The notes under the pieces: generated by a model | What the model saw: only the letters and a program-made list of their open reading frames with translations | The model's database searches: none | Told to the model about the DNA's origin: nothing | In this document: positions 8,461 through 8,867 of the stretch, piece by piece | Numbering within the stretch: position 1 is the first letter of the stretch | Layout of the letters: the number at the start of each line of letters is the position of its first letter | Translations under genes and position numbers: made by a program | Source: a virus | Lineage: Duplodnaviria > Heunggongvirae > Uroviricota > Caudoviricetes | Length of the DNA: 35,473 bases | Strand: one strand, 5' to 3' | Virus record (IMG/VR): IMGVR_UViG_2850773344_000008

Positions 8461-8867
8461 GCACATCGAATCAGTGCTGTTAGCCCTGGCAGCCGAAAAA
8501 GGGCAGGCGTGGGTCGCTAACGCAATTACTGAAGAATATCTGCGGCAGGGGGGGCGGCGAATTGTCTCTGGTACCAGGCAAGGACTGGAACAATCAGCAG
8601 AATATCTATCACCGTTGGTTGAAAGGTGAAACGAAAGCGCAAAGGGAAAAAATTCAGAAACTGATCCCTGCGGTTCTGGCAATTCTTCCGCGTGAGCTGC
8701 GTCACCGACTCTGTATCTTCGATACCCTGGAACGCCGTGCATTACTGGCGGCGCAGGAAGCGTTGAGTACGGCAATTGATGCGCATGATGATGCTGTCCA
8801 GGCCGTTTACCGGAAAGCACATTTCAGCGGTGGTGGGTCGCCCGGCGATTCTGTCGTAGTGCATTGA
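8444..8867 (+). pseudogene. YdaT-like gene, frameshifted
   Basis: Two overlapping ORFs (8444..8629 and 8562..8867) that together resemble one protein of about 140 aa; the frame change falls on a G7 run at 8548-8554; removing one G gives a continuous ...EEYLRQGGGELSLVPGKDWNN... frame. Confidence 0.55.

Follow-up and report, generated by a model that had tools for sequence, protein, structure and literature searches.

Comparison of a split ydaT gene in a Shigella flexneri prophage remnant with its close relatives indicates that the gene carries one extra G in a homopolymer, and the whole of the observation is very probably explained by a stable, slippage-derived pseudogene arising from ordinary prophage decay. 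In the proposed mechanism, replication slippage within a run of six G (G6) would have added one G, giving a run of seven (G7) and frameshifting this gene for a CII-like regulator. The change likely had a single origin in the ancestor of the serotype-5 group (M90T, 8401, NCTC 9728, and UGYR01) and would have been stably inherited since then. Translation from the native ATG would yield the first 37 residues followed by 24 out-of-frame residues, so that the allele is predicted to be a loss-of-function pseudogene. The lesion would be one more in a prophage that was already dead, in which ydaU and ydaV are broken and around seven IS elements have inserted. Its effect is most probably neutral, with a mild benefit as the upper limit.

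Reading frames at the G-run

The stretch of DNA analysed here (the window, 35,473 nt) contains seven consecutive G at positions 8548..8554 on the + strand, flanked by A8547 on the 5′ side and C8555 on the 3′ side. It is one of only two runs of at least seven G or C in the 35.5-kb window, the other being a G10 at 15727. The run lies within a ydaT pseudogene (8444..8867, +) annotated in its relatives as belonging to the “toxin YdaT family” and encoding a CII-like POU/HTH regulator, which would be 140 aa long with G6.

Two reading frames overlap at this site. The upstream frame (8444..8629, +; 61 aa) starts at ATG 8444 and stops at TGA 8627-8629; it reads MKIRHEH...EEYLRQGG, corresponding to YdaT residues 1-37, and then runs out of frame (RRIVSG...) for a further 24 residues. 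The downstream frame has no stop codon between 8481 and TGA 8865-8867 and, from the G-run on, reads GGGELSLVPGKDWNNQQNIYHRWLKGE...VVVH. Its earliest possible start is TTG 8562, located 7 nt 3′ of the G-run, which delimits an ORF of 101 aa (8562..8867, +) that covers YdaT residues 40-140 and keeps H56/R57/W58 and helix alpha6. This ORF is shifted by +1 with respect to the upstream frame, and removal of one base joins the two into a single 140-aa ORF.

Both frames are open across 8481-8626, with the G-run inside the overlap, and from the sequence alone the position of the lesion is narrowed only to this interval. Its assignment to the G-run is based on comparison with relatives, in which the six ancestral G encode Gly36-Gly37-Gly38. 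The +1G frameshift breaks the ORF at codons 36-38, which makes the gene a pseudogene member of the YdaT family. The frames therefore agree with the original prediction that a YdaT-like gene is split at G7 and would be whole with G6, as do the close relatives, which carry G6 and a 140-aa ORF.

The exact 61-aa upstream product was not found in the contig and protein collections searched. Gene callers do not call this ORF, and it was therefore of no use for counting G7 alleles.

A YdaT-family gene in a prophage immunity region

The repaired 140-aa protein matches Pfam family PF06254 (YdaT_toxin) with 43.3 bits and the 101-aa fragment with 44.6 bits, both above the gathering cut-off of 21 bits, while the 61-aa upstream fragment has no Pfam match. 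The repaired protein also aligns over residues 1-140 with PDB entries 3c4r (E=2.7e-7) and 8bt1 (E=1.8e-6), and contains the recognition-helix motif H56-R57-W58 (...NIY-H56-R57-W58-LKG). The family assignment first made from the sequence thus holds, and the same family includes YdaT of the E. coli K-12 Rac prophage (P76064) and of CP-933P (8bt1; also 3c4r).

The gene is found at the position expected for this family: its start overlaps the end of a cro-like gene, a cI-like repressor gene is oriented opposite to it, and replication genes follow. The gene at the cro/ydaS position (8233..8460, +) is intact, encodes a 75-aa protein of the P22_Cro family, and overlaps the start of ydaT by 17 nt. At the cI/RacR position, an intact, divergently transcribed gene (7749..8156, -) encodes a 135-aa repressor with an HTH_3 domain. 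The replication genes ydaU and ydaV lie downstream of ydaT. The locus is the immunity region of a Rac-type lambdoid prophage.

In Rac, a YdaT-box of sequence ATGATTCATGAAAATCAA spans the ydaT ATG (PMC11879457). We scanned for the corresponding inverted repeat, (A/T)TGATT-N6-AATCAA, at the ydaT start and found a YdaT-box-like repeat, GTGATTCATGAAAATCAG, at 8437..8454 (+), which spans the ydaT ATG and matches the Rac box at 16/18 positions. Across the window such matches are at chance level (4 observed vs. 2.4 expected), and the others were not credited; the site at the ydaT start alone agrees with the Rac box in both place and sequence.

The window gene resembles Rac and CP-933P YdaT in its H56-R57-W58 motif, its position after cro, the divergent cI-like repressor, and, tentatively, the box-like repeat over its start, and the ydaS-ydaT region of phage Rac shares ~87.6% nucleotide identity with the window. 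It differs from both in the interruption of its ORF by +1G at codons 36-38, and its upstream partner is a P22_Cro-type protein that is not clearly a member of the YdaS family. The K-12 gene “remains unmutated” according to its authors (PMC11879457), whereas ydaT is mutated in the lineage of the window.

The original prediction also described YdaS and YdaT of Rac-type prophages as a pair that is toxic when derepressed, and this description is correct only in part. Rac YdaT is toxic when expressed (PMC5700377, PMC11879457), and its expression activates the host gene rcsA (PMC11879457). However, YdaS and YdaT are now regarded as Cro-like and CII-like regulators, respectively, and not as a toxin-antitoxin pair (PMC8630535, PMC9986795, PMC5917428), and CP-933P YdaT did not show toxicity (PMC8630535).

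Predicted loss of YdaT function

YdaT forms tetramers: its N-terminal part is a POU/HTH domain, its long C-terminal helix packs into a four-helix bundle, and residues 1-96 on their own fail to bind DNA (PMC9986795). In the Rac protein, DNA binding depends on H56 and R57 of helix alpha3, and tetramerisation depends on alpha6 (residues 95-128; PMC11879457). The product initiated at the native start of the window gene is missing the recognition helix together with the remainder of the POU/HTH domain, as well as the tetramerisation helix. Because H56/R57 and alpha6 are needed in these published mutational data, the G7 allele is most likely a null, loss-of-function allele.

Some YdaT activity might nevertheless be preserved by two routes whose geometry can be read in the sequence. 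First, +1 ribosomal slippage on CAG-GGG-GGG-C, where tRNA-Gly re-pairing would be perfect, could give the full-length protein. Second, initiation at the internal TTG 8562, with the G-run acting as a Shine-Dalgarno-like element at a spacing of 7 nt, could give the 101-aa protein with alpha3-alpha6 and the tetramerisation helix. The Pfam YdaT domain is kept in the 101-aa ORF, and 99% of M90T pseudogenes are transcribed (PMC7132871). Against the first route, homologues are single 140-aa ORFs with G6 or GGGGGAG at the run, and since no frameshift is conserved among them, programmed recoding is unlikely. Against the second, the 101-aa form is without helices alpha1-alpha2 of the DNA-binding domain. 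We therefore regard a residual product with YdaT activity as very unlikely, and loss of function as the preferred reading of the allele.

The ancestral run is G6

The closest complete E. coli genomes, FDAARGOS_943 and FDAARGOS_944, share 99.3-99.7% identity with the window across the prophage, and both have G6 and an intact gene annotated as “toxin YdaT family protein”. Over 700 nt, FDAARGOS_944 is 99.7% identical to the window, and the sole indel in ydaT is G6 vs. G7 at 8548. The exact repaired 140-aa sequence is encoded in at least 1000 contigs of public collections. More distant homologues, e.g., those of Ceylon31 and phage Rac, have GGGGGAG at the position of the run. From the 8bt1 alignment, Gly36-38 are placed at the start of the alpha2-alpha3 loop, which varies in length and sequence across the family (PMC9986795).

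Together these alignments identify G6 as the ancestral run. The presence or absence of a G-run in intact homologues had been singled out beforehand as the observation that bears on a slippage-prone tract; since the close intact homologues carry G6 and the window is one G longer, replication slippage is the natural explanation for the origin of the lesion.

G7 is shared by the serotype-5 group

The window corresponds to S. flexneri 5a strain M90T (CP037923.1, locus L027, also G7), to which it is identical over 3742 nt. The G7 run is also present in S. flexneri 5 strain 8401 (CP000266.1), in NCTC 9728 (CP026799.1), of serotype 5a/5b (PMC9455713), and in UGYR01000001.1; strain identities were taken from PMC7132871 and PMC9455713. 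In order to obtain an unbiased sample of S. flexneri, copies of the locus were retrieved via the neighbouring 212-aa ydaU allele. The sample comprised the G7 loci of CP000266.1 (L020), CP026799.1 (L023), UGYR01000001.1 (L024), and the window, along with G6 loci encoding a 140-aa ydaT (L015, which has eight further similar places, L016-L019, L021 from AE014073.1, and L022). Three SNPs, at 7466, 7610, and 7683, track the run length perfectly in this sample, being found in 4/4 G7 and 0/7 G6 sequences. Three additional strains (L025, L028, and L030) also have G6. Overall, G6 and an intact 140-aa ydaT are found in the majority of S. flexneri that carry this decayed prophage, and the serotype-5 group has G7 in 5/5 sequences, window included.

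A 113-aa ydaV fragment was also considered as a probe for the G7 clade and was rejected, as its C at 9784 also occurs in G6 strains. The term “YdaT” was not found in the supplements of the M90T genome paper.

Long-read assemblies are prone to homopolymer errors, and the true sequence could in principle be G6, as the original prediction had allowed. For M90T, PacBio reads were assembled with Canu, and Illumina RNA-seq reads alone served for polishing (PMC7132871). Such errors seem to occur in the region, namely an A6 at 10263 seen in the window and M90T only, and G5 calls in other long-read assemblies; some of those of S. sonnei give a suspicious G5 at the same run.

However, G7 is common to four separately deposited assemblies (M90T, 8401, NCTC 9728, and UGYR01), including the older, Sanger-era 8401 genome; the NCTC 9728 and UGYR01 records are presumably long-read assemblies. 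The 8401, NCTC 9728, and UGYR01 records each differ at other positions in the region, and the three are therefore not copies of a single record. In addition, the run co-segregates perfectly with the three linked SNPs in the ydaU-based sample. Alignment of the window with FDAARGOS_944 over ~9 kb shows four small indels, one of which is an 11-bp deletion, a pattern unlike that of homopolymer error; over ~20 kb there are two homopolymer-length changes, the 11-bp deletion, and a few other small indels. An assembly pervaded by homopolymer errors was rejected on this basis, given just two homopolymer-length differences in ~20 kb.

The occurrence of G7 in separately deposited assemblies and its linkage to SNPs thus indicate that it is not an assembly artefact, and an error at the homopolymer is extremely improbable. 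As judged from these comparisons, the G7 run is a real +1G mutation that appears to have been vertically inherited from the common ancestor of the serotype-5 group.

Run length among E. coli and Shigella assemblies

Another possibility raised at the outset was a reversible switch. In a phase-variable form of it, G6 (ON) and G7 (OFF) would interconvert at an appreciable rate in a mixed population. The run is mononucleotide and falls within the first third of the ORF, public Shigella and E. coli assemblies include runs of 5, 6, and 7 G, and G7 is also found on a different flank haplotype in E. coli O55:H7 DEC5A. Phase-variable poly-G/C contingency loci, such as those of surface genes in Neisseria and Haemophilus, likewise have a poly-G near the 5′ end of the ORF that sets the frame.

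Probes of 86-87 nt with the run at their centre were searched against 5426 complete E. coli genomes. With the window flanks, the G6 probe had an exact match in two of these genomes, and the G7 probe had none among the 5426. When the probe carried the commoner flank haplotype, 1/848 E. coli genomes with this ydaT subtype (DEC5A) matched G7 exactly; approximately 700 genomes were one gap or mismatch away from G7, and all eleven of the matches listed span 86 nt, consistent with G6. GTDB representative genomes matching the pattern have G6 in 6/6 cases, and the ORF is intact in both of those translated.

The DEC5A sequence (NZ_CP038394.1, locus L002, 1507-1930) carries G7 on a different flank haplotype, is annotated “frameshifted”, and may represent either an independent slippage event or an assembly error.

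CP026824.1 and several of the long-read assemblies of S. sonnei have runs of five G; within the S. sonnei set L006-L011 and L014, G5 occurs in 3/7. L014 and the non-sonnei L005 are also one G short in a G6 run of the cro-like gene at 8321-8326. Because another G-run contracts in the same long-read assemblies, the G5 calls and the losses in the cro run are most likely technical homopolymer miscalls.

No run-length heterogeneity was seen among assemblies of the serotype-5 group (5/5 G7), and others have G6, so that no ON/OFF polymorphism in tract length is found within one lineage. G7 is limited to one local-haplotype group, G6 is usual in the 848 E. coli genomes with the subtype and in the GTDB representatives, the G5 calls resemble technical errors, and the replication genes that follow ydaT are already dead. 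The tracts of classical contingency loci are longer than 6-7, whereas that of ydaT is short (6-7), its G6 is stable across hundreds of E. coli genomes, and the gene encodes a prophage regulator in a dead prophage. These comparisons point to a G6 run that is stable across a large population, with G7 confined to a single clade and one singleton. A reversible switch is highly improbable and we abandon this part of the original prediction; stable inheritance of the G7 allele remains the preferred reading.

Decay of the surrounding prophage

The replication genes downstream of ydaT are also broken. In the gene at the ydaU position (8945..9722, +), an 11-bp deletion at 9534/9535, between GGGCG direct repeats, shifts the frame. 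The ydaV gene (9729..10476, +; DnaC/IstB-like) has a premature TAG at 10068-10070, which is AAG in FDAARGOS_944, and an extra A (A6, 10263-10268). All Shigella copies aligned, G6 strains included, share the deletion in ydaU and the TAG in ydaV, which are therefore older than the ydaT frameshift. As read from this distribution, the ydaT frameshift appears as a late lesion specific to one sublineage.

Several other features of these two genes were recorded. In CP026810.1 (L025), the ydaU-position gene has extra -6 and -1 deletions, for a total of -18, and a restored 256-aa ORF, which may be either a compensated frame or an assembly quirk. The extra A in ydaV is seen in the window and M90T only and is a possible assembly error. 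At 10250-10323, ydaV has eleven clustered SNPs shared with UGYR01000001.1 only, which look like a gene-conversion patch from a paralogous prophage.

The remnant carries about seven IS elements in total, which interrupt holin, terminase, and other phage genes. IS-sized insertions relative to FDAARGOS_944 correspond to two copies of IS2 of 1331 bp each (5625-6955 and 24587-25917), an IS66-family element (17682-20693), and IS3-family elements (15829-17065 and 20914-22153). Further IS3-family transposase genes are located at 3013-3831 and 31729-32547.

The second long G-run of the window, the G10 at 15727-15736, lies 3 nt upstream of the holin ATG at 15740, in the position of a ribosome-binding site. 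It is also present in FDAARGOS_944 and is longer and potentially more slippage-prone than the ydaT run; the holin ORF itself is cut by the IS3-family element from 15829. A prophage tRNA cluster (14750-15059) encodes Met/Ile-CAT, Arg, Thr, and Gly tRNAs. Its tRNA-Thr(TGT) gene (14907-14980) has a 1-bp deletion near the 3′ end relative to FDAARGOS_944, and the ARAGORN call persists. An ORF running off the left end of the window (1-1812) encodes an IpaH-family T3SS effector E3 ubiquitin ligase (NCBIfam IpaH_Shig, 563 bits), and the prophage remnant therefore carries a virulence cargo gene. A 544-aa ORF at 32947-34581 (-) has no NCBIfam match at E<=1e-5.

Pseudogenes number 640 on the M90T chromosome, and frameshifts affect 406 of those counted genome-wide (PMC7132871). 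The ydaT allele is like the homopolymer-slippage pseudogenes of Shigella, in which a single-base indel in a mononucleotide run is fixed in a clade amid IS elements and other pseudogenes, and differs from them in nothing material.

A second loss of ydaT in S. sonnei

The S. sonnei copies, including that of strain 53G (HE616528.1), have a ydaT broken by loss of an A at the equivalent of window position 8482. The annotated 101-aa ORF of S. sonnei Ss046 (Q3Z436_SHISS) is identical to the downstream ORF of the window. The S. sonnei allele (Ss046/53G) is therefore the same prophage gene, also split and with the same 101-aa ORF called, but with G6 and a different lesion, i.e., an independent inactivation. 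The 101-aa ORF was rejected as a marker of G7 since the S. sonnei lesion yields the same ORF and makes it ambiguous.

The original prediction had proposed that inactivation at the tract could be adaptive decay. The decay is evident in the broken ydaU and ydaV genes and the IS load, while its adaptive part is not separable from neutral loss; sister S. flexneri lineages that carry the dead prophage keep ydaT intact, and ydaU and ydaV were broken earlier. Under adaptive inactivation, loss of YdaT would be selected because the protein is harmful when de-repressed, and the G-run would be the easiest target for a knockout. In its favour, Rac YdaT is toxic to cells that express it, which filament and die, and it activates rcsA (PMC5700377, PMC11879457), and ydaT was broken independently in S. 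sonnei (8482) and serotype-5 S. flexneri (G7). The cI-like and cro-like genes are intact in the Shigella copies compared, bar L005 and L014 (likely miscalls). The two independent knockouts are compatible with selection, and the second lesion gives a weak hint of convergent loss.

However, most S. flexneri with the same dead prophage keep the 140-aa ydaT, as do nearly all E. coli with the subtype, and ydaU and ydaV were lost earlier. No toxicity was observed for CP-933P YdaT (PMC8630535). With the hundreds of pseudogenes that Shigella has (PMC7132871), drift would be expected to strike one prophage gene twice. Drift is the simpler explanation because S. flexneri and E. coli mostly keep ydaT and Shigella loses genes readily, and adaptive inactivation is accordingly unlikely.

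A broader version, in which loss of ydaT is convergent and selected in Shigella while the repressor and cro-like genes are kept, with the G6 run as the preferred target, seems to us improbable; in one variant of it, the G7 allele could make a truncated 101-aa protein with the tetramerisation helix. If such convergent loss were true, removal of YdaT could be a small pathoadaptive step, given the activation of rcsA and the Rcs regulon (PMC11879457). Neutral decay remains our preferred account of the lesion.

Implications

The split gene, located in a Shigella prophage remnant, is a homopolymer pseudogene of a routine sort and has little importance beyond annotation. The split ORFs at 8444-8867 in M90T, 8401, and their relatives should be annotated as one ydaT pseudogene, and “toxin” in the Pfam and product names is better read as “CII-like regulator”. 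The differences in length that give G5 among long-read assemblies look technical and caution against calling phase variation from them.

For the family, the G7 allele is a naturally occurring exception to the published statement that ydaT “remains unmutated” (PMC11879457). Probable ydaT-null backgrounds exist in nature in serotype-5 S. flexneri and S. sonnei, with the cognate repressor and the putative YdaT-box still present, and these backgrounds may be convenient for studies of the cross-talk between YdaT and the host through rcsA.
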